Source: Eledone cirrhosa
Lineage: Eukaryota
Assembly: GCA_964016885.1 (NCBI GenBank)
Contig: CAXHJY010000527.1
Coordinates: 1 to 27,051, forward strand
DNA length: 27,051 nucleotides
Reading direction: 5' to 3'
The position numbers and the translations under genes were made by a program. Position 1 is the first letter of the stretch. The number at the start of each line of letters is the position of its first letter. Positions 1,742 through 27,026 of this stretch are shown here, piece after piece. The notes beneath the pieces are model-generated. The model was not told the DNA's origin. It saw only the letters and a list, made by a program, of their open reading frames with translations, and did no database searches.

Positions 1742-2005
1742 CTGCTCATATTATTAATACTATCTTTGTCGTTTTAACACTGATATCGATATTGATAATA
1801 TCACAATAGCAATTCAATAGATAAAATTACTTTTCTGATAATATAAATGATACTTTAATTTGGCAACTGAAATAATTTTCTGTATCATTGCCTCGTTGAA
1901 TGTTTCAATATGAAACACACTCGTCCACTCACCCACACATATAACCCACGCCCACACTCACACCCGCACACAATCAAATAAACTATGCAACTTATGCAGT
2001 TTCAT

Positions 2006-2055
2006 ATGCAAATGAGATTTAATTACATCATTTACACAGATGAGAAAACTATAAA
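2006..2055 (+). promoter_or_regulatory. Octamer (ATGCAAAT 2006-2013) and TATAAA (2050-2055) upstream of a hammerhead motif
   Basis: Exact motifs; octamer spacing recurs at two other hammerhead loci. Function is inferred. Confidence 0.4.
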
Positions 2056-2085
2056 TTCTCGAGTGTTTTCAAGTCCAGCAGATTC

Positions 2086-2156
2086 AAGCGGTGGGAGGGA
2101 CCTTCCTGAAGAAGGCCAGCCAAGCCTGAAATGCATAGACCGTTGACTCCTTGCTT
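2086..2156 (+). ncRNA. Minimal type-I hammerhead ribozyme (Penelope pLTR-like)
   Basis: tc-CTGAAGA(2106-2112)-aggc cagccaa gcct-GAAA(2128-2131)-tgca-TA-ga. Stem III is the palindrome ATGCAT. Proximal stem I is only 2 bp, with distal ggag/ctcc and aagc/gctt pairing. Confidence 0.7.
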
Positions 2157-2785
2157 CCGTTGGACACCACAAGAGGGCATTAGCCCCGGTGTTTGCGTAG
2201 CTACTGCTTCCTAAAACAGTGTTTCTTTAGAAATACGAACTTTCTATACATATTTGTATGAAACTATGCTTGAAGCGAAATCTGATTTCGTTTCTCTCAT
2301 ATATATATATGTACACATACTGAATTCATTTGCCAAAATATGGGGGTTTTCCCCTCTGAGTTACACATGTGCTTTTACAGAACACTGCGTCATCCACAAC
2401 ACTGGGGCAGAAGAAAATATTCCTCGTTCGATCATTAAACCAAAAGCTTATTGTTTTAAGTAGACAGCGTTATTGATTTAGTTGACGCAGAAACCCTGTA
2501 CTGGATTTTACCATCAATTCCAAGGATCCAGGTTTGTTATATATATATATATATGAATATGTCATTTATTTCGTCTGACCTGTTTAGCTTGACTTACCTG
2601 AGTTGTTACCAGGCGTTTTTGTCCAATATAGTTATGTTATTTTTCTAAATTTTTCTTAATTTAATATTTAAAGATAAGGATAACAAACTATATTGCTGTA
2701 GTTATTTTTTTTTCATCCTAGCAAATTTGGTCCTTACGATCGAACACATGTATGTTTATATTAGTGTTCATGTTTCTTTTTATTC

Positions 2786-2821
<36 letters not shown>

Positions 2822-3068
2822 TATATACAATGAAGAAGCTATGGAGTTACAATTTACCAGATTTTATTGATTACATAATGCTTACCTTCAGTAATCAATG
2901 AAATGAAATCATTTCTAACCTACTGGCTTCTACCTCGTTGTTTTACCAATAATCTCGACTATATAGACGTACATGTATATTTTGTCGATCGCGCTGACCT
3001 GCATATACTAATGTCGGTTGATTGACTAGCACAAAACATAACAACATATCTCTCTTTCTCTCTCTCTT

Positions 3069-3116
<48 letters not shown>

Positions 3117-3534
3117 CTAAGGCGGCTAAAATTCCTGAGATCCATGGACGAGTTCTCTCCAGCGGTCTCTGTCCCTCATTATCGCTGCCATGTCCTGCGT
3201 CTCCAACAGACCAGTGTCTGTCCTTAGGGCATCAACATACGTTAACCTTGGTCTTCCTCTTCTAGTGTGTCCATGTAGCGGCTCCCACAGGAGCACTGAG
3301 TGCAATGTCAACTCTGGATGCCGGTGAATATGTCCAGCTAAACTCAGTCTCCTCTGTGTCACTTTTGAGTTGACTTTTGGGATGCTCCCATACAGCTCTG
3401 AGTTTTTCATCCTCAGTGTATACTGATTAATGTTCAGAGCCATCCTCAGCATTCTCGTGTAGCACCCATCCACCATCTTAGTGGATGGGTGCTACACGAG
3501 AATGCTGAGGATGGGTGCTACACGAAATGGGTGC
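3117..3534 (-). mobile_element. 5'-truncated RTE-clade LINE inserted in a (TA)n tract
   Basis: Carries the RTE C-terminal ORF fragment and a very short 3' UTR running into (AT)n; (TA)n on both flanks; rearranged 5' junction at 3481-3534. Confidence 0.85.
3126..3476 (-). pseudogene. C-terminal fragment of an RTE-type reverse transcriptase ORF
   Basis: Motifs DGCYTRMLRMALN, RRLSLAGHIHR, RRGRPRLTYVD and DRDRWRELV are typical of RTE-clade C-termini; no RT core present. Confidence 0.85.
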
Positions 3535-3536
<2 letters not shown>

Positions 3537-3585
<49 letters not shown>

Positions 3586-3790
3586 TATAAATATATATAT
3601 ATATATATATAAATTTGGTGTTTTTTATATATATATATATAATATATTTATGTGTGTGGGTGTGTACAGCTTGCGTGAGATTGTGTGTGTGTATGTGTGT
3701 GAGAGAAAGAGAGAGAGAAAGGGCAGGAGAGAGAGAGAGGCAGAGAGAGGGCAGGAGAGAGAGAGAGAGAGAGAGTGAGAGAGAGTGAGA

Positions 3791-3863
<73 letters not shown>
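3537..3863. repeat. (TA)n, (TG)n and (GA)n microsatellite block
   Basis: Direct observation. Confidence 0.95.
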
Positions 3864-3867
<4 letters not shown>

Positions 3868-4869
3868 TATAGTTTGAGAGCCTTGAATGACGAATACATT
3901 TCCACAGATATTGAATTGAAAAAATGATACTTTCTTATTTTTATTTAAGTATACATGTTATTTATTTAATTACATTTTTTGTCTTGACAAATACTATATC
4001 TCATATACAGGTTAAGGGACTGGGATGTGACACGCACTTTGCGTGAATGTTCATCATTTCTTCTGGCGGAAATAGTTGCAAGGTGAAAGGAAATAGTCTC
4101 ACTGATCGACGATTAATCATGTAGAAAATTTATAATTAGTTGGACATTCTATTTAAATCATATGAGGCGCTTTAGATTCAAGAACATTGCATCCATCGCG
4201 TGTCTGTAAAATGTGTGTGAATAATGTCGAGTGATGATCAAAAGCTTCTCCGTTAATGCGATTGTGAGGAGTTGTATCGTAGGAGCAAAATGGATTCTAC
4301 TTTTATTAATTTAATTATTGCTAGTTGTGGTTGTTGTTAATTAGCTCCCAGGTCAAAGCTAATCAAGCTGATGTATGATCAAAAGCAATTGACGTGTAAT
4401 TACACTGTCACACATCCATCACCATTGAATCTAGGACTACAGTTATCTAATATGTTCGTATTGTGGTTATTTTTTCTTAATGGATAGCGTGTTATTTGAC
4501 AGAGGTTCACTGATGTTACTCACAGATCCACTCAAATGATAACATGCACCATTTGAATTCGATTTTGCTAGAGGATCAGTGGTTAAAATAATAGATTAGT
4601 CGTTGGGCAACTGAGAGTACCTAAGGAACAACTACTGCATATTCTCACTACAATAACTCTTAATTGAAGTGTCGTATCTCACACGTCATTTCAGAAGTAT
4701 TTTCCTCGAAATAAAATAACAGCAGTTAAGGTGCTTAAGCAATCCAGATCGTGGCATGGGAAGTTCCTCTCAAACATTCTCCACAGTTCACTTCCTATCC
4801 CTTGATAATGAATTTTGCATCTGGAATATACGGGACTAATAAATATTTAGATAATCTGAGAATGTGTCT

Positions 4870-4915
4870 ATGAAAGTCCCTATCTTCGCTGTGCTCATGG
4901 TGTTGTTTTTACCAT
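4870..4915 (+). CDS. Candidate exon 1 of a small secreted peptide (signal peptide MKVPIFAVLMVLFLP)
   Basis: ATG-Lys-hydrophobic run followed by donor GTGAGT at 4916 (phase 1). Confidence 0.5.
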
Positions 4916-5516
4916 GTGAGTTTTAGCAATAGTCCAAGCTAATCCATGCAATGTTTATCTGATGTGTACCATTCCTTATGCAGCAAGAGATTAACAGCAT
5001 TTACATGGGGTTCACATATTGTTGCATATAGTGTGTATTTGTGTTTAGGCTTCCTTTCAGGCTATGTTAGTCTCAGTGGTGAGACGACATCATAATATTA
5101 ATATCAATAGGTAGGGTTTATATATAACATAACAATAACACTCACATTTCTATGTGTAAAATGCCGGATTAATGCCGTATCTAGGATTATGTCTTCATTT
5201 CTTCCTATTCAGCTTTTCGTTCCCATAAAGCTGTTATATAGATAGATCTCGACTCACTGTCCGTAATTTATACGTTCGATACAGTCTTTTCTGTCATAAA
5301 TCGGCATCAAACCCGACCGTTATTTTACGTCCTTTATTTTCACACAAGAAATAATAGCTACATTTCCAAAGAAAGAGGAGATTGGATAGTTTAGTTCGAG
5401 TTGAAAATGGAATGATCAATTCTGAAATGCGATGGACGGAAATTGCGCTCACAAATTAAATGAAATAAGGAGACAGGGCGACCATCAAGAGAGAGCCATT
5501 GGTCTTTTCATTTCAG

Positions 5517-5623
5517 ATACCATCTACCTGCTGCCGGTTCTGGAGGTTAGTTTTAATCTCAGAAAGAATGGAGCAGGAAATATTCCATCTGATGATTTAA
5601 CATCTTCCACCACGTGTTTACCA
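5517..5623 (+). CDS. Candidate exon 2 ((Y)TIYLLPVLEVSFNLRKNGAGNIPSDDLTSSTTCLP)
   Basis: Acceptor tcttttcatttcAG and donor GTAAGT at 5624. The only stop-free frame is the one required by the phase-1 join to exon 1. Confidence 0.5.
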
Positions 5624-6001
5624 GTAAGTTTTCATTAAGTTGGAAAGGATAAAAGACAAAGTTAACCTGTATGTGATTTAAGCTCAGATTCCAGTTAGAC
5701 GGACTAAGTAAAATAAGGATGTTAACCGATTCGTTTATTACTGTGTCAATTAGCCTGTGTGGATAAAGAGCTAACATTCTCTATTTATGATGATATTGTG
5801 CACCTACAAATTAGTTATGTTTGTGCATCATAGTAGCAGGAAATATAAATAAAAGAAGCTAAGGAGAAAATGAATTATTAGACATTTTCTCGAAATTCTT
5901 TACTTTTACTCTTTTGTCATGTAAGGAAGGCAACATTGGCCATGTTTCTCTTTGATCACACCCAGTTTAATGTTGACGCCAACGTATTTTCTGTTGTACA
6001 G

Positions 6002-6043
6002 ACGATAGAATCACTAAGTAAATGTATCAGCTTTTACTCTTAA
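6002..6043 (+). CDS. Candidate exon 3 (TIESLSKCISFYS*)
   Basis: Acceptor tattttctgttgtacAG; phase 0 is the longest open frame from this acceptor and matches exon 2. Confidence 0.35.
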   Translation, partial: TIESLSKCISFYS

Positions 6044-6729
6044 TGTGGTAGAAAATGAGAAATGTCCACAGGATAAATTACAATTAAGTGCTAACTGCAA
6101 GAAAGCAACAATACGAATATAGTTAACTCAGTGTTAAAATATTTATTGCGGTGATCGTCGAAACGTTAAAGAATTATCTCAGACTTATATACATTGATGC
6201 CACAATTCCCACTACAACTTTTGTAATAGGATTCAAACTGGTGTTATTTCTACATAGATAAAATGAACATCAACAATCATTCGTGAAGAATTTACTTCAA
6301 AACCTAATTTATATGAATGAATACATCTGAATATATTGATTCTATTTTCACCACGTAAGGTAAAACAGTATACAACAGGAATATGTCCAATGATATATGA
6401 TAGTTAGGGGAGAATTGAGAAAAGTCTTCCTCATATTCAAGAATTAAACAGAATGATTGAAATATAATGAAAATGTTTGCTGATTGATCAGTCATTTAAG
6501 CAACTACCAATTACATGAAACTCTAATCTCTGCCATTAAAACCTGTATGTATGTATGTATGGTCCCGTAATTGCTGATAGAATCGTAGGGGCACCGTGTT
6601 AAAATAGTATGTTTCTTGGGCATTTTAAACATGGCGGAACCCATCCATCTTCATACCTGTGTACAGCAGATTTCTTCCAGAGAAAGATAGAAAGTGAGAG
6701 AGAGGAAATGAGAAAGAGTTATAGAGGAA

Positions 6730-6882
6730 GAATCGACCCCCGTACTAGACTGGCACATTTTCTATGGACCTCGAAATGATGATAGGGAATGTTGATGTGG
6801 TGGGCTTTGAACTAAGAAAGCCGGAACGAATACCATGAATTATTCTATCCGACGTTCTAACGACTCTGCCAATTCACCACCT
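6730..6882 (-). mobile_element. Degenerate tRNA-derived SINE
   Basis: Minus-strand head ggtggtgaatTGGCAGAGTCGttag (A box) and GTTCAAAGCC (B box); body similar to the copies at 8133 and 8973. Confidence 0.65.
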
Positions 6883-7251
6883 ATATATTATTATATACTG
6901 TCATGTTATAGATAAAACATAAAATAGGCAATATATTATGGTAGACCGAATAAATCGTGTTATAATTAACTACCGACAAAGTCAATATTGGAACGGTCTC
7001 TTCCACGACTAATTATCGTCAAAGAATTTCCCTAGCAACGATTTTGAAGTGTCTAACAGGGAGCGGAATCTGCACCCCAAATTCCCTAACTGGAATATTC
7101 AACCTTAGCTCGGCAGATTACTAAAATATTTGGTTATTGTAACGTCAATAAAAGACGTTGTCTGCGTTAAATTGTACTTTAATATTACAATAACTTAATA
7201 AACTCCCTTGTTATAGTTAATTAGAAATATCAATACGTATATGTGTTATAT

Positions 7252-7291
<40 letters not shown>

Positions 7292-7532
7292 AAGAAGTGT
7301 AATGCGCACCTCGTCGAGTGCTCTAAATTGCATAATGTTGTATCGGTAAACAACCAGCACATACTCAAATGTATATATATATATGTATGTGTGTGTGTGT
7401 GTGTGTATGTGTGTGTGTATCTCTGTGTGTGTGTTGTATGTGTGTGTGTGTATGTGTGTGTGTATCTCTGTGTGTGTGTTGTATGTGTATGTGTGTATCT
7501 ATATATTCATTTATATGTAAGTATGTATGTAT

Positions 7533-7709
7533 GAACATAACGTACTTCCCGGCGTCGAAGACGCTACTTTATCCATAAAATATCCAAAAAAATCTACGTC
7601 CTGGAGGCCGAAGGTTGTCTATTATTTATCTTCAAACTTTTGGTTGTCAACATTAGGGTGCATCCTCGAGGACGAAGCGTCGTCGGTGTCGGGAGATATG
7701 GTATGTTTC
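7533..7709. mobile_element. Old MITE-like fold-back element
   Basis: Imperfect terminal inverted repeats 7533-7565 / 7676-7709 plus inner pair cgtcctggagg / cctcgaggacg. Confidence 0.45.
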
Positions 7710-7750
7710 TAGGTGAGGGACACATAAAACCCACGATATCGTTTGCATTT

Positions 7751-7944
7751 AATAATTGTTTCTACTTTTGGCACAAGGCCAGAAATTACCCGGTGCATTA
7801 CTGATACTTTATTTTATCGACCCCGTACGGATGAATGGCAAAGTTAACCTCGGTGGGATTTGAACTCAGAATGGCAAGAGCCGTAACTCTATGCGTCAAA
7901 GCATGCGTCAAAGCATGGCGTTACCCTCTACCGATACTGCCAAT
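7751..7944 (-). mobile_element. tRNA-derived SINE (short subfamily)
   Basis: Closely similar to 8973-9160; B box GAGTTCAAATCCC on minus; internal 12-bp tandem duplication atgcgtcaaagc. Confidence 0.9.
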
Positions 7945-8132
7945 CTAAATGTAGACCGGTTCTATATTTCGGGTAAATGCATTCGATTTTCAAAGAGTAA
8001 GATCACCTCGCGCAAAGCAAATTCTCACTTTAAAATAAATCTTTAAGCACAGTCATCGTTTGATGCTTGAAACTCGTGTTTGTATTTCTCAAAATACACC
8101 ATCATGTATGTATATTTATTATATATATATTA

Positions 8133-8345
8133 CGGTGGATTGGCAGTATCAGTAGAGGGTCGGATGCCACGCTTTGCAGTATAGAGTTACGGCCCTTTAT
8201 GATCTGAGTTCAAATCCCGCTGCGGTTAACTTTGCCTTTCATCGTTACGGGGTCGATAAAATAAAGTACCAGTTTCGCATTGGGGTCGATTTAATCGACT
8301 TCCCCTTCCCCCAACATTGTTGGCCTTCTGCTTATATAAGAAATC

Positions 8346-8350
<5 letters not shown>
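8133..8350 (+). mobile_element. tRNA-derived SINE (longer subfamily)
   Basis: A box TGGCAGTATCAG, B box GAGTTCAAATCCC, shared body aactttgcctttcatc...gataaaataaagtaccagt, extra gtcgatttaatcgac hairpin, tail into (AT)n. Confidence 0.9.
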
Positions 8351-8383
<33 letters not shown>

Positions 8384-8602
8384 AGTATTTATGTATATAT
8401 TTATATGAGTATGTATGTATGTATACTATATCACACACACACACACATACATACACATATATACATATATATATAATCTGTGTTTTTCGAATATTAATAA
8501 AAATATTCGATTCGTTTGCAATTATGCAAACAAGCCTCAATTTTAAAGCCATTTCAGTAGAATGAGCCCCTCGTTCTTGCTCTTGTGTTGGCATATAAAC
8601 AA

Positions 8603-8650
8603 AACTGCAGACACTAATATTTTTGGGTATTACCCTTCATCAGTACAGCT
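8603..8650 (-). ncRNA. Degenerate type-I hammerhead ribozyme
   Basis: Minus: agctgta-CTGATGA-a gggt aat accc a-aAAA-tattagtg-TC-tgcagtt. 7-bp stem I with G-U pairs; catalytic G12 is A, so probably inactive. Octamer on minus at 8725-8732. Confidence 0.6.
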
Positions 8651-8794
8651 CACTGTTCACCTGCCAACTGTCATAGCCAGTGTAAATATTTACTTTGTAA
8701 AATATACAGTGACTGATCCGCCTGATTTGCATATTAACAAAGCTGATCATTGAATCGGCTAATAAGCTGATCTGACTGTTAAGTTTTTAAAAAT

Positions 8795-8843
<49 letters not shown>

Positions 8844-8972
8844 TATATATATTACATTCTAAGTTGAGGAAGACATATTTGAGAAATCTCGAACTTGTGC
8901 CTTGTCTCCCAAAATCAGATCATAGAAAATATTCAAATAATAAATCCGAGTATTTAACCATTATAAAATAAT

Positions 8973-9160
8973 TGTTTCTACTTTAGGCACAAGGCCAGCA
9001 ATTACCCAGTGCATTACTGGTACTTTATTTTATCGACCCGGTAAGGATGAAAGGCAGAGTTAACCTCGGCGGGATTTGAACTCAGAATGGCAAGGGCAGT
9101 AACTCTATGCGTCAAAGCATGGCGTCCAACCCTCTACCGATACTGCCAATTCACCGCCCT
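8973..9160 (-). mobile_element. Full-length tRNA-derived SINE with 20-bp target-site duplication
   Basis: TSD tttaaccattataaaataat at 8953-8972 and 9161-9180; A box TGGCAGTATCGG and B box GAGTTCAAATCCC on minus. Confidence 0.95.
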
Positions 9161-9348
9161 TTTAACCATTATAAAATAATGAATGACATATCCAAACGGA
9201 ACCTGACCCGCTAACATCTGTTTCCCGAGTTTATAAAACAAACTTCTATTTTATCTGATGCAAGCGTTCCAAAGTTTTGGTACCCTTGACATATATATAA
9301 TAGAATAAATATGGTTTTATGAATATAGTTTCCATTTATTAACATCAT

Positions 9349-9436
<88 letters not shown>

Positions 9437-9514
9437 GTTATTCGGGTTGAATCGGAGGTAACCACAGTAAGTAAGGTACTCAATACATAGCGGAGTATAA
9501 CAGTTTTAATATAT

Positions 9515-9571
9515 ATGAGATTCCTGATGATTTCTAAAGAATGAAACAGTTCTAGTCCTGTAGAATCTCAT
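9515..9571 (+). ncRNA. Type-I hammerhead ribozyme
   Basis: atgagattc-CTGATGA(9524-9530)-t ttct aa agaa t-GAAA(9543-9546)-cag ttctagtc ctg-TA-gaatctcat. Perfect 9-bp stem I and GUA triplet, in a ~137-bp island between (TA)n tracts. Confidence 0.85.
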
Positions 9572-9572
9572 C

Positions 9573-9604
<32 letters not shown>

Positions 9605-9757
9605 CATATATAAATGGAAAAAAGTGAAGCGAAATTTCATTTTTCACTCTTAGAACGGCGGTTACTTAAATATAAGTATGTATACGTACATACTTATGTA
9701 TACAGACGTACAGTAGTATGTATATATATACATACACGTACAAATATATATATATAT

Positions 9758-10260
9758 GTACGTATGGATTTACCGAACAATTATTAAAATGATCGGTTTG
9801 TTTGTAAATAAACATCCCGAATTAAGCCGTACAGTGTTTAGCAATCATCGTTGCCCTTTTGTTCAACACTGACAAAGGAACGATATATGTGTGCATGTAT
9901 GTATATATATACATATTACTGTACGTCTGTATACATATATGTATGTACGTATACATACTTTCATTTTTTCCATTTATGGTTTTCGGTGCGCCCGGCCGAT
10001 TAATTCCCTCGATATGCAAATTAGGCTGCTCAGCCGTTAATATGCATAAGGAAAGTATATACTTTCAGACGTTCAATCATCTGGCAGGAAGGTATACGAT
10101 GCTGACGATAGCTAATAAGTTTGAAACTAGTACATCGTTCCTTTGTCAGTGTTGTACAAAAGGGCAACGGTGGTTGCTAAACACTGTACGGCTAAATTCG
10201 GGATGTTTCTTTACCAACAAACCGAGCATTATAATAAATGTTCCGTAAATCCATACGTAC
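9758..10260. mobile_element. Penelope-like pLTR/retrozyme-like element with 127-bp inverted copy of its 3' part
   Basis: 9758-9884 is the reverse complement of 10134-10260 (10 mismatches, no gaps by hand alignment). Interior has octamer 10014-10021 and a hammerhead; AATAAA near 10233-10238; (TA)n flanks. Confidence 0.75.
10096..10138 (+). ncRNA. Minimal type-I hammerhead ribozyme with palindromic stem III
   Basis: acgatg-CTGACGA(10102-10108)-t agct aata agtt t-GAAA(10123-10126)-ctag-TA-catcgt. 6-bp stem I, ACTAGT palindrome, cleavage predicted after 10132. Confidence 0.85.
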
Positions 10261-10297
10261 ATATATATATGTGCATGTATGTATATATGTATACATA

Positions 10298-10389
<92 letters not shown>

Positions 10390-13030: not shown

Positions 13031-13175
13031 TGTCTATAGAGACCTATAAATATGTATTGGTTAATTGATGAATGTGTTTTATATCACTATGATAAAATAG
13101 CAAATTGTAATATAGGCGTCAGGTTGAGGTCAAATGATGTATTTTATTTACCTTAGAACCCATCAAATCACGGCC

Positions 13176-13231
13176 GACTACTGATGAAGTCTGAAGTGCG
13201 AAATGGTGGTATGCGATGTCTCTTTTTAGTT
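13176..13231 (+). ncRNA. Highly degenerate hammerhead-like motif
   Basis: gacta-CTGATGA(13181-13187)-12 nt-GAAA(13200-13203)...tagtt, followed by AATAAA. Stems II and III pair poorly. Confidence 0.35.
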
Positions 13232-13335
13232 AACACTCTAATAAACGTACCGACGTATCTTCTCTACGACACAGAACTACCTAAGCATCAAGGATCTTCA
13301 CATGTACCACATCCAACTCCAGGTAGTGTCCAGAG

Positions 13336-13419
<84 letters not shown>

Positions 13420-13495
13420 CAAAGGAATTGTGGTAAGGAACCAGATGTACCATAACGCACCAGAGTACTCAATACTTAGGGTAGTAGAGTGGGAA

Positions 13496-13608
13496 ATAGG
13501 AGAAAGTATGACCCCGATGGCAGAGCTCAAGCCGTTTCGACGGTTATTTCTAAGTCCAGAAATAGCCGTAAAACGGCTTGAGCTCTGCCGTCGGGGTCAC
13601 ACTTTTTT

Positions 13609-13613
<5 letters not shown>
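13496..13613. repeat. ~56-bp-arm hairpin, apparently derived from a hammerhead ribozyme
   Basis: Arms 13496-13551 / 13558-13613, loop aagtcc. Minus strand reads stem-cGAAA-cggc ttgagctct gcca-TC-ggggtca, but there is no CTGANGA on either strand. Confidence 0.85.
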
Positions 13614-16986: not shown

Positions 16987-17024
16987 GTTTGAAAAGTGAT
17001 AATATATCTAAGGCTGCATTACTA

Positions 17025-17205
17025 TGAATTGGCAGTATCGGTAGAGGGTCGGACATGCTTTCCAGCTGAGTTACGTGCCTTTATGATCTGAGTTCAAATC
17101 CCGCCGAGATTAACTTTGCCTTTCATCTATACGGGTTCGATAAAATAAAGTACCAGTAAAGTACTGGGTAATTTCTGACCTTGTGCCAAAAGTAGAAACA
17201 ATTAT
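17025..17205 (+). mobile_element. tRNA-derived SINE (short subfamily)
   Basis: A box TGGCAGTATCGG, B box GAGTTCAAATCCC, 3' end ccttgtgccaaaagtagaaacaattat. Confidence 0.9.
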
Positions 17206-17921: not shown

Positions 17922-18199
17922 TTGGTGACCTTGCCACGGACAAACGTCTACATCAACAATTATGGGACTGCTGGCTCACCCCTTCCTCACCAACAATATA
18001 AAAAGCCCCGGCACCACCATCGACATAGCCAGCAGCAATAACAGCCAACTACAACAAAAAGTATATTATATTATTGTAATGCACTGGGTGATTGCTGGCC
18101 TGGAGTGGAGACAATTATTAATAATTTCATTCTTAAGCCACGCAATGCTCACATTAAGGAACCACTCATGATAACAACAATTTAAAAAAAACAACAAAA

Positions 18200-21100
18200 A
18201 GAAAACCCCGTGACCAAGAAATACCGGGATGGCGGCCGGCGGGGAATAGCCATGTCTCTAGGGGAGAAAGACCCCTCTAGTCTTGGTTGACACTCGTTCT
18301 AGAAGTGGTAACACGAAAAGATTACCCCTTGGCGGATAAGGATAAAACGCGACAAAATAAAGTAGATGTCTAATGATGAAATCTCATACCGGATCGGCCG
18401 TCACCCGGGTAAAAAAGGGCCGCGTCCCTCAGAGAGGAACCAGACTGGGGTCGAAAAATCAGCTAATGGTTCAAACCTTCCCATCACTTCGGAGCTGGAG
18501 ACCTCCCATAACCGGAATACTCCTACTGTTGGCCCTCCATGCTCACCACCAAGAAATCCAAAGAAAAAGAGAGAAAAATGGTCAAGGGAAGATAATAAAG
18601 AAGTCCTTGAGGCTTTCTACACTGCCATGTACTACCCATCAAATACATCGAATACAGAGCAAACATATATCAACTGGAAAAAGAAACATCCCGAAAACAG
18701 AGGCTATATTGACAGTAACAAACTAGCCAATATACGAAGAAATATTGTAAGAAAAAAGTTACTAACTGATATAGAAATTGATCAAATCAAGCTAGTAGCA
18801 CAAAGTCAGCGAAGGGAAAGTGAAGCATGTGTCAGTGAAAACGAGGTAAACTGTAACACTTCGAATCCCAGAGTTGGGGCGGAATCACTGGCAACAGAAC
18901 AAATTAAAGAAAGGAGCGAAAAAGTGGAGGGAGTGCATGCTCAGGATGAAACTCCAAATGAAAATAATGAGATCGTAAATGATAAAGAAATGAATGAGAA
19001 TGAACTTGCCAACTTGAAGGATGAAATTATGATCGAATGGATGAAAATGAAAGAATCTGACATGGGGGAACGAGACACCCTCCCTAAGATCCAGAACTCC
19101 AAACAGAACCAAAAGATAATACACAAGACTAACATAATTCTCAAAAACATTATCATCACAAACAAACTAAGCATTACTGACTTAAATCATCTCTATTATG
19201 CATCGGCTAAAGTCACCACTCACTTATGTGGAGTGAAGATGAAAAAACAAAGGAATTCCCACAAGAAATCTACTTGGCAAGATAACATCAATCGCCAAAT
19301 AAACCTTCTCCGATCTGACATAGAAATGTTAACAAACTATAAAGTAGGTGAACATGTTAAACAAACTAAACTTAGAAAATTGAAAAAAAAGTACAGTATA
19401 AGATCAACATGTGACATAGACATGCTGATAGAAACAAACAAGCAAAAAGTGTCGGCCAAAGCTGCTCGTATAAGGCGCTTTGAAAAACGATCTAGATTCT
19501 ATAAGGACAATAATATGTTCAAAAACAACCAAAGAAACTTCTACAGAAAAATTGGTAAGTCAACAATAACTGCTAAATCAATACCACCCAAGGAGGAAGT
19601 GCAAGAATTCTGGGAAAAGATCTGGGCCGAAGAAAAAGTTCATAACATACATGCACCATGGATAGACAGACAAATGAAAGAAACAGCTCACCTTGAAGAA
19701 CAAAAATGGGAAAATATAACAGTTGAACAGCTGCGCTTGGCTCTAAGAAAAACCAGCAAATGGAAATCCCCAGGAAAAGACAAAATACTAAACTTTTGGA
19801 TAAATGCCTTCACAGAGTCTCATGAGCTGTTAGCCCAACTTTACAATGAAATAGTTAAGGAGCCAGAAAAGATACCATCATGGCTAGTTAACGGCATTAC
19901 ATTCCTGCTACCGAAGAATGATGAGACAAACAATCCCAAAAATTACAGACCGATAACCTGCTTGACCACAATGTATAAAATTTTAACATCAGTCCTAACT
20001 GAATACACATATGACCACCTGATAACAAATGACCTATTTCCCATTGAGCAGAAAGGGTGTAAACGAGGCTCATATGGCTGTAAGGATCAGCTTCTGGTTA
20101 ACAAAATGATACTGGAAGATTGTCATAATAGACACAAAAATCTATCGATTGCTTGGATAGATTATAAAAAAGCATTTGATAGTTTGCCACACAGTTGGAT
20201 TGAAAAATGTTTAGAGATTTTCAAAATATCCCCCGTTATCAGGAGGTTTTTGTCATTCAGTATGAGGACATGGAGAACGACACTCCTTTTGAATAGTGAA
20301 ACAAAATCACTGGAAGCTGGAGAAGTTAACATTAATTGTGGAATTTTTCAGGGTGACTCTTTATCACCGCTTTTATTCTGCATCGCACTTATACCATTAA
20401 GTAAAATGCTCAATGAAACAAAACATGGATATAGAGTCTATGACAAAACCATTAATCACCTGTTCTACATGGATGACCTGAAACTATTTGCAAAAAATGA
20501 TGAACAATTGCAAGGGCTATTATCCACTGTGAAGCAGTTCAGTGATGACATTAAAATGGAGTTTGGACTGGATAAATGCGCCAAAGCAACGTTCACCAGA
20601 GGAAAGCTGCTGAAGAGTTCAGACATTAATCTTGATCGGGGGAACGTGATAAGAGAGCTTGATCAAGAACAAACTTACAAATATCTAGGTGTTTGTGGAG
20701 GAGACGGAATCAAGCACTCGACAATGAGGGAAAGGATAAGGAAGGAATGTTACCGCAGAGTCAGAGCAATCTTAAGAACGGAATTGAATGCAAGGAATAG
20801 GATCGATGCCATAAACACGCTTGCCATACCAGTAGTAACCTACAGTTACAATGTCATCAACTGGTCAAGCACAGAGATCCGTAGGCTCGATACAAAAATC
20901 CGAAAATTCTTAACCATGCACAGAATGCATCACCCTAAGGCAGACATAGATAGAATATATCTCCCTAGGAAAGAAGGAGGACGTGGTTTAATCCAGTTAG
21001 ACATTGCGTTGAAAACTGCAACAATTGGATTATCCACATATCTAAGGGAATCACATGATTGGATGATCAAACTCGTTTTGAAACACGAAAGCACCAAAAG

Positions 21101-22155
21101 ATCATATTCCATTACAAAAGATGCACAAAGATACAGTAATGGACTACAAATTTCAGAAGTCCCATTTACTGCTGAAATGGAAAACACAGAAAAAGCAAAG
21201 CAGGTAAAAGTAACTGCAAAGAAAGAACTGCTACAGAAACTGGCTAAGAAATGGCAAGAAAAGCCTCTGTATGGAAAATACCCAGAGCGAGCTAACAATC
21301 CTGATGTTGACAAAACTTTAACCCATCAGTGGTTGGCATCCTCTGGACTGAAATCGGAGACTGAAGGACTGATTATATCCGCACAAATCAGTGTCTGCCA
21401 ACAAAAAATTACCAAGCCAACATAATAAAAAATGGGTGCAGCCCATTATGCCGTGTATGCAAAAAACAACCAGAGACCATTGACCATATAATTTCAATGT
21501 GCAGTCCTATAGCTCCAACCGAATACCTAAACAGGCATGACAGAGCTGCACAATACATACATTGGATAATGTGTAAGCATTTTGACCTGCCCCATCAAAA
21601 GAATTGGTGGGAGCATCAACCACCTCCCATACTTGAAAAAGATCACATCTCAATCTTGTGGAACTTTAGCATCCAAACAGACCGAAAAATAGATGCAAAT
21701 AGACCTGATATAATATTGAAGGACTTTCAAAGGAGGGTATGCCTGCTAATTGATATGTCTGTTCCAATAGACAAGAATGTATCTATAAAAACATTTGAAA
21801 AATTGAGCAAGTATAAGGACCTGGAGATAGAAATTGGAAAAATGTGGAAATTGAGAACTAAAACAATACCAGTGGTTGTAGGCGCTCTGGGAATGATACC
21901 TAAGGGGTCTAACGACTACTTATCGCAAATCCCAGGAAACCCGCGTATAGGAGAAATACAAAAGATAGTACTAATGGGAACTGCCCATATACTAAGGAAG
22001 ATCCTGTCAATATAAGTACATCACAAGTCTAAACACTAAGGATGCATGTGTGAATATGTGTGTTCTTTCTTGAACATGGCGGACCTTGTTGTCTCTTGAG
22101 GTCACTGGTTGTGACTTGGTGATAACTCGTATAAACATAAAGCAAGATAAATGCA

Positions 22156-23349: not shown

Positions 23350-26300
23350 TCATTTTTGGGGCCCTTTCTGCCCGTGTGTTTGTTTGTTTATGTGTGTCCG
23401 TATACAGCGTGGTGATAATGCCACACAAGGGCCAAGTGGGATGGCGGATCCACAGATGGCTATGTAAACATACATTCGCCAATCCTCGATAAGAGTGTTT
23501 AAATATCGAACATAAACAGTTCGAATAACGGTGAAATGGAGACTAGAACGTCATGTGACAGACTCTCACCCAACAGGTGCCCCCTGGCTCAGCAGCAGGA
23601 ACCTGACTGTCAACCAAATACTGCTGATGTTGGAGGAAGAAGAAGAAGGAAAGGGGCCAGAACCAACTGGACGAAAGAATTGAATAGAACTGTTATGCAA
23701 TGCTACCTGAAAAGTAACCCCAAGGAGAGGGGCTACAGGAGACGGATGCATAACATCTGGAACGAGATTGGTTTATTTAAATTAGATGAACAAAAATTGG
23801 CCGGGCAGGCTCGGGTAATAAGAACTAATGGGTGGATAAGCGAGCTGGAACTGGAGGAACTGAGCAGAGAGAATGGCTTGGAGATGGCGGGTGTAGTATG
23901 CCAGACAAGCGAGCCGGCGGGAAATGAAGGTGAGGAGGTCCTGAGAACGGAGGAACCACCCGAAGCAGACAATGATCTGAATACTGAGATAAATAATACC
24001 TGGAACAGAGATACGGCCACTGAGGAGATGAATGCTGACGGGCTAGGACAAGATTCGGTTGACATCCTAAATTTAGTGGTAGATGAGTTGAACAATGATA
24101 GTGGGAGACCTATGAACCTAAGATTTGTAGACAGGAAAAAGTTAAAAGAAACAACAGCTAAGGTAAACAAAGTCATCCCATACCTTGAGGCGAGGAGTCT
24201 TCACCAGTGCAACAATATCCTCAAAGCAACAGCAAATACGGTGAGGAAACTACTTGGTATAAAAGCGAGAGGAAACAACAGACAAGAAAGAGCAGAGCCG
24301 TGGTGGAAGAAGCGACTGAGTGGGCAAATCGGGGAAATGAGAAATGACATAGGAAAGCTTGAGTCACTACTGAATGGGACACTAAAAAACATAGGCACTA
24401 AAAATAGACTGGAAATAAAATACAAAACTAGGAGTAAAAAGCTAAATATTATCATAGAGGAATTGAAGCAACGCATTGTAGCAAAGAGTGCCAAAATCAG
24501 GCGATACGAGAACAGAGTCAGTCAGTATAAACAGAACCGCATGTTCGACAACAAACAGAAGATGCTGTTTGGACAGCTTGAGGGGAAAGAAAGAGGCAAC
24601 GACTTGATCCCTGGGGCGGAACAAGCTAAAACATTCTGGAGAGGAATATGGGAGCAGGATGTTAGACACAATGCCCAGGCAGGGTGGATTGAGACAGTAC
24701 AGAGGGAGATCGGTGAGCAGGCACAGCAACAGACTGATTTGAGTATCACAGTTGAAACTCTTAAGGGGCAAGCCAAAAAACTAACCAACTGGAAATCACC
24801 AGGCCCAGATGGTGTGCAGGGGTATTGGATTAAACATTTAACATCCCTCCACCCGAAGCTGACGGCCATGTTCAATGACTGCTTGGTGTCGGGTGAGGTG
24901 CCAGAGTGGTTGACAAAAGGTACCACAGTTCTGATAATGAAAGATCGAATCAAGGGTAATGATGTTACCAACTATAGACCTATCACATGTCTGCCCGTAA
25001 TGTGGAAACTGTTGACGAGCATTGTGTCTGAGGAAATCTACCATCACCTCCACACAAACAACTTGTTGCCGGACGAACAGAAAGGATGCCGAAAGAAGTC
25101 ACGTGGTACAAAGGACCAGTTGCTTATTGATAAGATGGTAATGGGGAATTGCAGGAGGAGACACACTGATCTTGCCATGGGATGGATAGACTACAGAAAG
25201 GCATTTGACATGGTGCCTCATTCCTGGATCACCAAAAGCCTGGAGACCTTCAGGGTGGCAGATAACATCAGACAGTTGCTGGGCAGGAGTATGGGGTCCT
25301 GGGAGACAGAGTTGACATCAACTGGAGTATCCTTGGGAAGCGTGAAGATCAAGAGAGGTATCTTCCAGGGAGATAGCCTGTCCCCTCTGTTGTTTGTCCT
25401 TGCCCTGATGCCCTTGACCATTATGCTGCGAAAAGTGAGAGCAGGATACAAGTTGGGAAGGGGAGAGCTTACCATCAATCACCTCCTCTTCATGGACGAT
25501 CTTAAGCTCTTCGGGAAAAGTGAGAAGGAGTTGGATGTGCTTGTTGACACTGTCCGTATTTTCAGCAGTGATATATGTATGCAGTTTGGTATTGGTAAAT
25601 GTGGAGTCATTGTGATGAGGAGGGGTAGGTTGAGCAGAAGTAACGGGATCCAGATACCAACAGGTGAGATGATAAAGGAAATTGACTCTGAGGAAGGATA
25701 CAAGTATTTGGGCGTTCTGGAGGCTGATGGCATAAAGAACAACAAAATGAAGGAATTGTTAAGAACTGAATACATTCGGAGAGTAAGGAGCGTATTGAAG
25801 TCACATCTGAACAGCAGAAATGCCATAAGCGCAGTAAATTCCCGAGCTGTGTCTATTATTAGGTACAGTGCGGGAATTCTGAGATGGAATGTTGCTGAAC
25901 AAAAAGAAATGGATAGGAAGACTAGGAAGCTATTGACTATCTACAACATGTTCCACAAGAGGAGTGATGTCGATAGACTCTACCTAAGGAGATCTGAGGG
26001 TGGAAGAGGGCTTATCAGCATAGAGGACTGTGTTCAGATGGAGAAAAACAACCTATACAAATACGTGACCTATAGTAAGGAGCCAATGCTCAGAGCTGTA
26101 CTGAAGGAGGGGACAGTAGGCCAGGGGATACCCAAGGAGGAAATAACATCAAGGAGGAAGAGCAGCCTTAAGGGAAAATCCCTTCATAGTACCTTCTTTG
26201 AGAAAACTGAATTTAGAGATCCACAGACATGGAACTGGTTGAGAAGAGGAGACCTCAAAAAGGCTACAGAAGGAATGCTAATGGCTGCGCAGGAGCAGGC

Positions 26301-27026
26301 CCTCAAAACGAAGTGGTTGAAGCACCATATCTACAAGGAGGAGGCTAGCCCACTGTGCAGGATCTGTGGAGAGAGAGAGGAGACTGTGGCTCACATTGTG
26401 TCCGAGTGTAAACACCTGGCCCAGACCCACTATAAGGGCTGGAGACACGATGTGATGGGCAGGGTGATCCACTGGCACCTGTGCAAAGCAAACAATCTAC
26501 CACATTCTGAGAAATGGTATGAGCATAGGCCAGAGGCGGTGATGGAGAACAGTCAGGTGAAGGTGCTGTGGGATTTTAGGATACAGACGGACAAAAAACT
26601 GGGACACAATAGACCTGACCTGGTGGTTGTGGACAAAGAAAAAAGATCGTGCCTGATTGTGGATGTGGCCTGCCCGTTCGACACGAGAGTGCAAGAGAAG
26701 GAGAGGGAGAAAATTAACCGATACCAGGACCTAAAGTGGGAGGTGAAAAGGATTTGGAACTGCCATGAAGTCAAAGTGATCCCGATTGTCATAGGCGCAC
26801 TGGGGACTATCTCCAAAGGTTTCCGGGGATGGTTAAAGAAAATCGGCCCCTTCACGCTTTTTGGAACGCTTCAAAAGGCATGCTTGCTTGGAACGGCAAG
26901 AACCCTCCGATACGTCCTGAATATCTGAGGCTGCAGGTAGTGGCTTGATATTCAATCCAACGGACTTTCCAGTTAACCAACATCAATGACTGAGATTCAA
27001 GGAATAATAATAATAATAATAATAAT
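23350..27026 (+). mobile_element. R4/Dong-clade non-LTR retrotransposon, copy 2 (different family; 5' boundary approximate)
   Basis: Intact single ORF, ~75-nt 3' UTR, (TAA)n tail 27003-27026. Confidence 0.93.
23536..26928 (+). CDS. Intact 1130-aa RT / CCHC / restriction-like endonuclease polyprotein
   Basis: N-terminal RTNWTKELNRTVMQCY (parallel to REKWSREDNKEVLEAFY in copy 1), KSPGPDG, NYRPITCL, WIDYRKAFD, GIFQGDSLSP, FMDD, CRIC-x8-H-x4-C, RHD, RPDLVVVD...IVDVACP...EKINRYQDL. Confidence 0.96.
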   Translation: METRTSCDRLSPNRCPLAQQQEPDCQPNTADVGGRRRRKGARTNWTKELNRTVMQCYLKSNPKERGYRRRMHNIWNEIGLFKLDEQKLAGQARVIRTNGWISELELEELSRENGLEMAGVVCQTSEPAGNEGEEVLRTEEPPEADNDLNTEINNTWNRDTATEEMNADGLGQDSVDILNLVVDELNNDSGRPMNLRFVDRKKLKETTAKVNKVIPYLEARSLHQCNNILKATANTVRKLLGIKARGNNRQERAEPWWKKRLSGQIGEMRNDIGKLESLLNGTLKNIGTKNRLEIKYKTRSKKLNIIIEELKQRIVAKSAKIRRYENRVSQYKQNRMFDNKQKMLFGQLEGKERGNDLIPGAEQAKTFWRGIWEQDVRHNAQAGWIETVQREIGEQAQQQTDLSITVETLKGQAKKLTNWKSPGPDGVQGYWIKHLTSLHPKLTAMFNDCLVSGEVPEWLTKGTTVLIMKDRIKGNDVTNYRPITCLPVMWKLLTSIVSEEIYHHLHTNNLLPDEQKGCRKKSRGTKDQLLIDKMVMGNCRRRHTDLAMGWIDYRKAFDMVPHSWITKSLETFRVADNIRQLLGRSMGSWETELTSTGVSLGSVKIKRGIFQGDSLSPLLFVLALMPLTIMLRKVRAGYKLGRGELTINHLLFMDDLKLFGKSEKELDVLVDTVRIFSSDICMQFGIGKCGVIVMRRGRLSRSNGIQIPTGEMIKEIDSEEGYKYLGVLEADGIKNNKMKELLRTEYIRRVRSVLKSHLNSRNAISAVNSRAVSIIRYSAGILRWNVAEQKEMDRKTRKLLTIYNMFHKRSDVDRLYLRRSEGGRGLISIEDCVQMEKNNLYKYVTYSKEPMLRAVLKEGTVGQGIPKEEITSRRKSSLKGKSLHSTFFEKTEFRDPQTWNWLRRGDLKKATEGMLMAAQEQALKTKWLKHHIYKEEASPLCRICGEREETVAHIVSECKHLAQTHYKGWRHDVMGRVIHWHLCKANNLPHSEKWYEHRPEAVMENSQVKVLWDFRIQTDKKLGHNRPDLVVVDKEKRSCLIVDVACPFDTRVQEKEREKINRYQDLKWEVKRIWNCHEVKVIPIVIGALGTISKGFRGWLKKIGPFTLFGTLQKACLLGTARTLRYVLNI

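Follow-up and report, generated by a model that had tools for sequence, protein, structure and literature searches.

Three elements in a 27,051-nt stretch of DNA from the octopus Eledone cirrhosa (contig CAXHJY010000527.1; the whole stretch is called the window) carry, in the same order and orientation, an octamer, a TATA-like box and a hammerhead ribozyme motif. The alignments indicate that these elements, E1, E2 and E3, have diverged within a single lineage and share this module by descent. On balance, it seems probable that they are non-autonomous retrozymes of the type without long terminal repeats (non-LTR retrozymes), and that the octamer and the TATA-like box are their own internal RNA polymerase II promoter.

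The octamer and the TATA-like box

The exact octamer ATGCAAAT is found at 2006–2013 (+) in E1, 8725–8732 (−) in E2 and 10014–10021 (+) in E3. The CTGANGA box of the hammerhead core follows after 92, 81 and 80 nt, respectively (cores at 2106, 8643 (−) and 10102). These positions and gaps had been noted in a preliminary description of this DNA and are confirmed here, as is the TATA-like tract that it had seen in between. The first T of this tract lies 44, 40 and 42 nt past the start of the octamer (box TATAAATT at 2050–2057 (+) in E1, TAAATATT at 8685–8692 (−) in E2 and TATATACT at 10056–10063 (+) in E3), so that the offsets from octamer to box vary less than the gaps from octamer to core. A TATA-like box at +40 to +44 is present in 3/3 of the elements, compared to 6 of 183 control matches that combine an octamer and a core.

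The context of the octamer, ATATGCAAAT, is read identically in the three elements (2004–2013 (+) in E1; 8725–8734 (−) in E2, with the octamer at 8732–8725; 10012–10021 (+) in E3). In E3 a second, inverted octamer-like site follows at 10040–10047 (ATGCATAT on the minus strand), and the whole block (10012–10048, +) can be folded as a hairpin of −12.2 kcal/mol. In E1 the word TATGCA is repeated three times consecutively (at about 1984, 1993 and 2005), the last copy running into the octamer (1984–2013).

ATGCAAAT occurs six times in the window, where 2.66 ± 1.63 are expected, and a count of six is reached in 5 of 100 shuffles. The three other octamers have no CTGANGA within 1700 nt. An octamer at a gap of 80–92 nt is found for 3 of the 19 CTGANGA cores of the window, which would have a probability of about 3e-6 to 3e-7 if the loci were independent (window chosen post hoc). 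Since E1, E2 and E3 are homologous, they are not independent and this probability does not hold for them.

Homology of the three elements

According to the preliminary description, the elements show no other obvious similarity. Local alignments contradict this: E1 and E3, as well as E2 and E3, are homologous both as a whole and in the parts downstream of the ribozyme, and none of 300 shuffles reaches the score in any of the four comparisons. The E1–E3 alignment has a score of 205 (shuffles 100 ± 16) and 54% identity, and the E2–E3 alignment a score of 252 (112 ± 17) and 50% identity. The relation between E1 and E2 is weak (score 156, shuffles 111 ± 17, reached in 5 of 300; 38% identity). The scores of the 3′ parts are 128 for E1–E3 (60.5 ± 11.4 in shuffles) and 123 for E2–E3 (65 ± 12.6), and the score for E1–E2 is reached in 27 of 300 shuffles. 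The 3′ part of E1 that is homologous to that of E3 lies at 2138–2275 (+), the ends of the element not being fixed; the corresponding region of E2, 8397–8586 (−), includes a TA/TG-rich tail. In a leave-one-out search, the profile built from E1 and E3 recovers E2 with an E-value of 8e-5. The homology of E1 and E2 with E3 extends beyond the ribozyme, so the module is shared by descent and has one origin, not three.

The hammerhead motifs

A type I hammerhead descriptor is completed by 5 of the 19 CTGANGA cores of the window. The motif of E3 (10081–10149 (+), core 10102–10132, predicted cut after 10132) has a score of 10, with 6/6 Watson–Crick pairs in stem I and a distal helix, three pairs over a U·U in stem II, and the palindrome ACTAGT as stem III. 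That of E1 (2073–2165 (+), core 2106–2137, predicted cut after 2137) has a score of 9, with 4/6 pairs in the proximal stem I, 4/4 Watson–Crick pairs in stem II, the palindrome ATGCAT as stem III, and an extended stem I (distal helix 2073–2079/2159–2165). The maximum among 67 control matches with an octamer and a core in viral contigs is 8. The three ribozymes are not all intact. Besides the imperfect stem I of E1, the hammerhead of E2 (8587–8668 (−)) is decayed: it has CTGATGA at 8643, a GGG/CCC stem II and a long stem I (distal helix 8668–8662/8593–8587), but AAAA replaces the required GAAA and the descriptor fails.

The free fold of E2 has a z of −2.97. When the core is held open, the long stem I folds in E1, E2 and E3, with an outer helix that begins 23–25 nt past the TATA-like box, and the distal helix of stem I is preserved in all three copies with different letters in each.

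The preliminary description also mentioned a fourth, degenerate locus, E4 (13097–13345). The word ATAGCAAAT is indeed present at 13097 with a gap of 75 nt, but its 8-mer differs from the octamer at 2 of 8 positions and the locus is unrelated to E1–E3. Its alignment to these elements is no better than chance (score reached in 244–281 of 300 shuffles) and its hammerhead score is 5, compared to 9 for E1 and 10 for E3; E4 was rejected as a member of the lineage. It consists of a degenerate hammerhead-like core followed by AATAAA and flanked by microsatellites, and is possibly the decayed end of another Penelope-like family.

Abundance and conservation of the E3 family

Four public sequencing runs were aligned to positions 9962–10261 of E3 (300 nt) at 80% likeness. 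These data concern E3 only, not the families of E1 or E2, and the summed depth is not a copy number. Run X1 possibly comes from the window's own sample and is hence not independent; X4 is from organism B and X5 from organism C. Matches were found in 7223 contigs of X1, 2275 of X4 and 44 of X5, and in 35,898 of 12.5 million reads of the fourth run, X8. E3 belongs to a very high-copy family.

In organism B the depth peaks over the octamer block (10012–10041, 85–98 thousand) and over the ribozyme (10112–10141, 76–90 thousand), with low points of 11 thousand between the two peaks and of about 1 thousand at 10162–10201. At the loose ends of the alignments in organism B, the flanks differ and the TATA-like tract is retained. 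No variant falls in 10008–10022 among the 40 of 81 variants listed for the family. In X8, 6656 of 8336 molecules terminate at 10019, at an AATT that overlaps the octamer. These ends seem to result from a restriction cut, hence the letters of the octamer would be present in most copies. Position 10120 is C in nearly all of the depth, which gives a G–C pair in stem II.

In the alignment of E1, E2 and E3, invariant columns make up 75 of the 242 without gaps. The longest invariant run, of 10 columns, is ATATGCAAAT; the next longest runs have 4, and a run of 10 is reached in 14 of 20,000 column shuffles. Of the members that the profile recovers in the window, three have a 5′ half, and the octamer is present in all of these (3/3).

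Structure of the E3 locus

The direct copy of E3 (9883–10299, +) consists of a unit of about 380 nt and a terminal redundancy of about 35 nt: 10263–10297 repeats 9883–9915, with a period of 380 nt. The length of the unit is within the 150–450 nt range of retrozymes, and the sole reading frame that overlaps it is chance-like (140 aa from stop to stop). The unit contains a run of six T (T6, at 9964), which is also present in the inverted copy described below. Such a run argues against read-through by RNA polymerase III, which is thus disfavored for this unit.

A partial copy in inverted orientation lies at 9610–9884 (−). Its first letter corresponds to 10134, which is 1 nt beyond the predicted cut after 10132, at a junction blurred by TA microhomology over 10131–10134. 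The 3′ part comes next, followed by the TA-rich linker with which the direct copy begins, by about 40 additional nt and by the T6 block; the inverted copy ends short of the octamer. The 3′ part thus precedes the 5′ part, as expected of a circular or multimeric template, and the terminal redundancy of the direct copy also fits such a template. The start of this one copy at the cut site would reflect a cleaved RNA template. Overall, the copies of E1–E3 in the window appear to be dispersed, decaying monomers.

Next to the inverted copy, another hammerhead-like motif is found at 9505–9580 (+), with CTGATGA at 9524, a short stem II over T·T, GAAA and the arms GAGATTC/GAATCTC (fold z of −2.54). It is not homologous to E1–E3 and has no octamer within 130 nt, which shows that motifs of this kind in the window do not all come with an octamer.

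A possible mechanism

The conservation of the module favors the promoter-plus-ribozyme cassette suggested in the preliminary description: ATATGCAAAT is the longest invariant run, the spacing between octamer and TATA-like box is fixed, and the module corresponds to the depth peaks of organism B. On the other hand, the idea that the cassette is shared across dissimilar families is wrong, since there is a single lineage.

We propose that a POU factor would bind the octamer, about 70 nt before the start site. Transcription would start near TATA+30, at about 2080 in E1, 8662 in E2 and 10086 in E3, which is 47–58 nt ahead of the cut, and the transcript would hence include the proximal stem I. RNA polymerase II would read through tandem master copies, and neighboring hammerheads, likely dimerized via their palindromic stem III, would excise unit RNAs. 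Each of these RNAs would have the next promoter at the 3′ end and might become circular. A Penelope-like reverse transcriptase/endonuclease would then insert copies of the unit into TA-rich DNA.

Several observations weigh against this interpretation. Regarding the lineage, the identity between E1 and E2 is low, and the leave-one-out profiles miss E1 and E3 when each is searched with the profile of the other two. The module was not found outside the E1–E3 lineage in viral and metagenome contigs, although these collections are poor in animal DNA, so this says little. Regarding the ribozymes, the core of E2 is broken (it has no G12), the proximal stem I of E1 is weak, the free folds of E1 (z of 0.79) and E3 (z of −0.81) are no better than shuffles, and Rfam gives no hammerhead call on the window, nor on three 121-nt pieces of E1–E3 at E ≤ 10. 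Position 10099 is T in 58% of the depth of X1, which would create a mispair in stem I, and no change of its partner is seen among the 40 of 81 variants listed; the invariance of the octamer cannot be claimed from these 40 variants either. The statistic of the invariant run is post hoc, since E1–E3 were chosen for having an octamer. Finally, the window contains no tandem array of the E3 unit and no Penelope open reading frame (ORF): its long reverse transcriptase ORFs (18366–22015 and 23503–26928) are far from the elements and have RVT_1, with no GIY-YIG hit.

Alternative explanations

What is conserved in the octamer block could be a hairpin in the (circular) unit RNA, serving for instance as a signal for a partner reverse transcriptase, transcription being due to read-through from outside promoters. 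In each of E1, E2 and E3, an inverted look-alike downstream can indeed pair with the octamer (−5.0, −6.3 and −12.2 kcal/mol), which also counts against the promoter hypothesis. In X4 the depth peak spans the entire hairpin (10002–10051), the TATA-like box being located at the shoulder of the peak, and the family variants 10023 A>G and 10042 A>T preserve or add pairs. However, the letters are constant across copies only in the 5′ arm, whereas the 3′ arm differs. The variant 10044 G>T (24% of the depth of X1) disrupts a pair, with no change of the partner among the same listed variants, and pairing alone cannot account for the exact octamer or for the fixed spacing of the TATA-like box. This explanation thus appears unlikely.

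Alternatively, the promoter might be of the small nuclear RNA (snRNA) type, with the octamer as distal element and a proximal sequence element, transcribed either by polymerase II (the case of newt satellite 2) or by polymerase III (the case of U6/H1-type genes), instead of being a plain octamer–TATA promoter. In newt satellite 2, polymerase II transcribes from an snRNA promoter (reported in PMC2220036), and the stretch between octamer and core is common to E2 and E3 (1 of 300 shuffles), which leaves room for a proximal element. Yet the stretch between octamer and box of E1 has no detectable sharing with that of E2 or E3 (73 and 95 of 300 shuffles), and the T6 run would halt polymerase III before the end of the unit. 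We consider a promoter of this type improbable.

It is even less probable that the elements derive from autonomous Penelope-like elements as their 5′-truncated ends, or pseudo-LTRs (pLTRs), in which case the module would be an ordinary pLTR promoter. Penelope-like pLTRs are reported to contain hammerheads and promoters (PMC4209133, PMC6765202), inverted truncated copies are described as typical of these elements (PMC8557442), and retrozymes are said to derive from pLTRs (10.64898/2026.07.22.740005). Against this, the 3′ part of the inverted copy of E3 joins the unit's own 5′ linker, which closes a circle of about 380–420 nt without an ORF, and stem I is long and canonical-like, not minimal.

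It is very unlikely that the octamer has no function, persists from a common ancestor and drew attention through the selection of the copies. E1–E3 are homologous and hence not independent, their selection was post hoc and the excess of ATGCAAAT in the window is mild, but 10 consecutive columns are invariant at a background of 31%, the octamer is in each of the profile-found members with a 5′ half, and the octamer block gives a depth peak in organism B.

Relation to known systems

E1–E3 fit the metazoan non-LTR retrozymes described by Cervera and de la Pena (2020, PMC7229834) and by Li, Clavereau and Pollet (2026, 10.64898/2026.07.22.740005). As described in these surveys, such retrozymes are, like E1–E3, non-coding units of 150–450 nt with a low G+C content, dispersed as monomers, and they have a type I hammerhead with a very short palindromic stem III. 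The U·U pair at the base of stem II is also found in the axolotl HHR_Amex2 (PMC7229834). The units of mussel retrozymes (350–390 nt) are comparable to the E3 unit of about 380 nt, and the hammerheads of axolotl retrozymes cut better as dimers (PMC7229834). Neither survey names the octopus in its main text. In the main text of PMC7229834 the word promoter refers to T7 only, and that of 10.64898/2026.07.22.740005 does not mention a promoter, an octamer or a TATA box, so a promoter of the element is absent from both.

As proposed for E1–E3, the repeat of newt satellite 2 (or Sat G), of about 330 nt, contains a polymerase II promoter ahead of its hammerhead (PMC2220036, PMC6765202), and this promoter is of the snRNA type (PMC2220036). 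E1–E3 differ by the TATA-like box at 40–44 nt, and E3 by its second inverted octamer-like site, and no proximal element was identified in E1–E3; this comparison is one of descriptions only. The newt promoter is said to consist of an octamer and a proximal sequence element, a result attributed to Coats, Zhang and Epstein in 1994, and the newt satellite hammerhead repeat was reportedly studied by Cremisi et al. in 1992 (cited in PMC6765202).

The pLTRs of Penelope-like elements with minimal hammerheads (PMC4209133, PMC8557442, PMC11167929) are described as having, like E1–E3, a type I hammerhead with a palindromic stem III and, as proposed for E1–E3, a promoter inside the repeat. They also resemble E3 by an inverted, 5′-truncated neighboring copy, a tail of 30–40 nt and AT-rich targets; the inverted truncated neighbor and the tail were found at E3 only. 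In contrast to Penelope-like elements, E1–E3 have no reverse transcriptase/GIY-YIG ORF and their stem I is longer. The Penelope promoter, as described in the sources cited here, is internal and overlaps an intron, with no mention of an octamer. The Sm-alpha hammerhead repeats of Schistosoma, which resemble short interspersed nuclear elements (SINEs), have, as proposed for E1–E3, a promoter followed by a hammerhead in each unit, so that the cut monomer bears the promoter at its 3′ end (PMC6765202). According to the same source their promoter is a polymerase III promoter, whereas E1–E3 have the octamer and the TATA-like box, with the T6 run in E3.

The class of the elements is thus known, namely non-LTR retrozymes, and a promoter ahead of a hammerhead had already been reported in newt satellite DNA. 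The preliminary description had considered the module as not yet described. This holds in part: the element type is that of the retrozyme surveys, and newt satellite 2 is reported to have an internal promoter of the snRNA type used by polymerase II (PMC2220036). Our search, whose scope did not extend to older or subscription papers or to supplements with element sequences, found no octamer–hammerhead module, no octamer–TATA retrozyme and no cephalopod retrozyme.

The cause of the strong transcription of animal retrozymes is not treated in the main texts of the two surveys, and the octamer–TATA module offers a testable answer for this lineage. The module would account for the presence of the promoter on the cut RNA, and it connects this invertebrate family with what was reported for newt satellite 2. 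Should the sites be bound, a repeat of such abundance would supply POU sites in large numbers. A broader idea is that an octamer-dependent internal promoter is an ancient and general part of animal retrozymes, retained from a cephalopod to newts, and that this family has spread many thousands of POU-site-plus-TATA cassettes over the genome of its host, where they drive circular RNAs under POU control (for instance neural or germline ones) or transcription in their vicinity; we regard it as doubtful.

Searches in other collections

The scan of viral contigs for an octamer and a core gave 67 matches, none of which has a descriptor score of at least 9. In metagenome contigs (10 of 64 parts), 3 loci have a score of at least 9 among 116 of the about 820 loci estimated. 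These three (L199, L209 and L232) are minimal-type hammerheads with gaps of 72, 88 and 90 nt and without a TATA-like box at +40 to +44, and were treated as unrelated. The profile of E1–E3 finds nothing at E ≤ 0.05 among 312 contig loci from the scans. In a control based on the hammerhead only, an octamer with at most one mismatch is present at −110 to −60 in 2 of 97 well-formed motifs of viral contigs. One of the metagenome loci (L296) has two minimal hammerhead motifs on opposite strands, and another (L245) has one, with no octamer.

Other features of the window

The window has a G+C content of 35% and is animal-type DNA, with abundant TA, CA and GA microsatellites, SINE-like repeats and two long reverse transcriptase ORFs. 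The latter belong to non-LTR retrotransposons, which we take to be of the R4/Dong type; both are on the plus strand, contain RVT_1 and terminate in (TAA)n. The first (18366–22015) has a frameshift near 21400 and the second (23503–26928) is an open frame of 1141 aa. A 3′ fragment of a long interspersed nuclear element, presumably RTE-like, lies at 3126–3514 (−); it has a local inversion of 75 nt (3440–3514) and no Pfam hit.

The SINE-like repeat, of about 190 nt, is present in four copies which are 80–88% alike (7751–7944, 8129–8284, 8967–9156 and 17018–17198), with fragments at 18076 and 27026. At 13–1089 there is a near-perfect inverted duplication of 510 nt (15–522 versus 580–1089, 94.5%) centered on a TA tract. 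Lastly, a short element at 13420–13610 has a 104-nt inverted repeat (13503–13605) and partly resembles 9470–9495; it may be a Penelope-type end.

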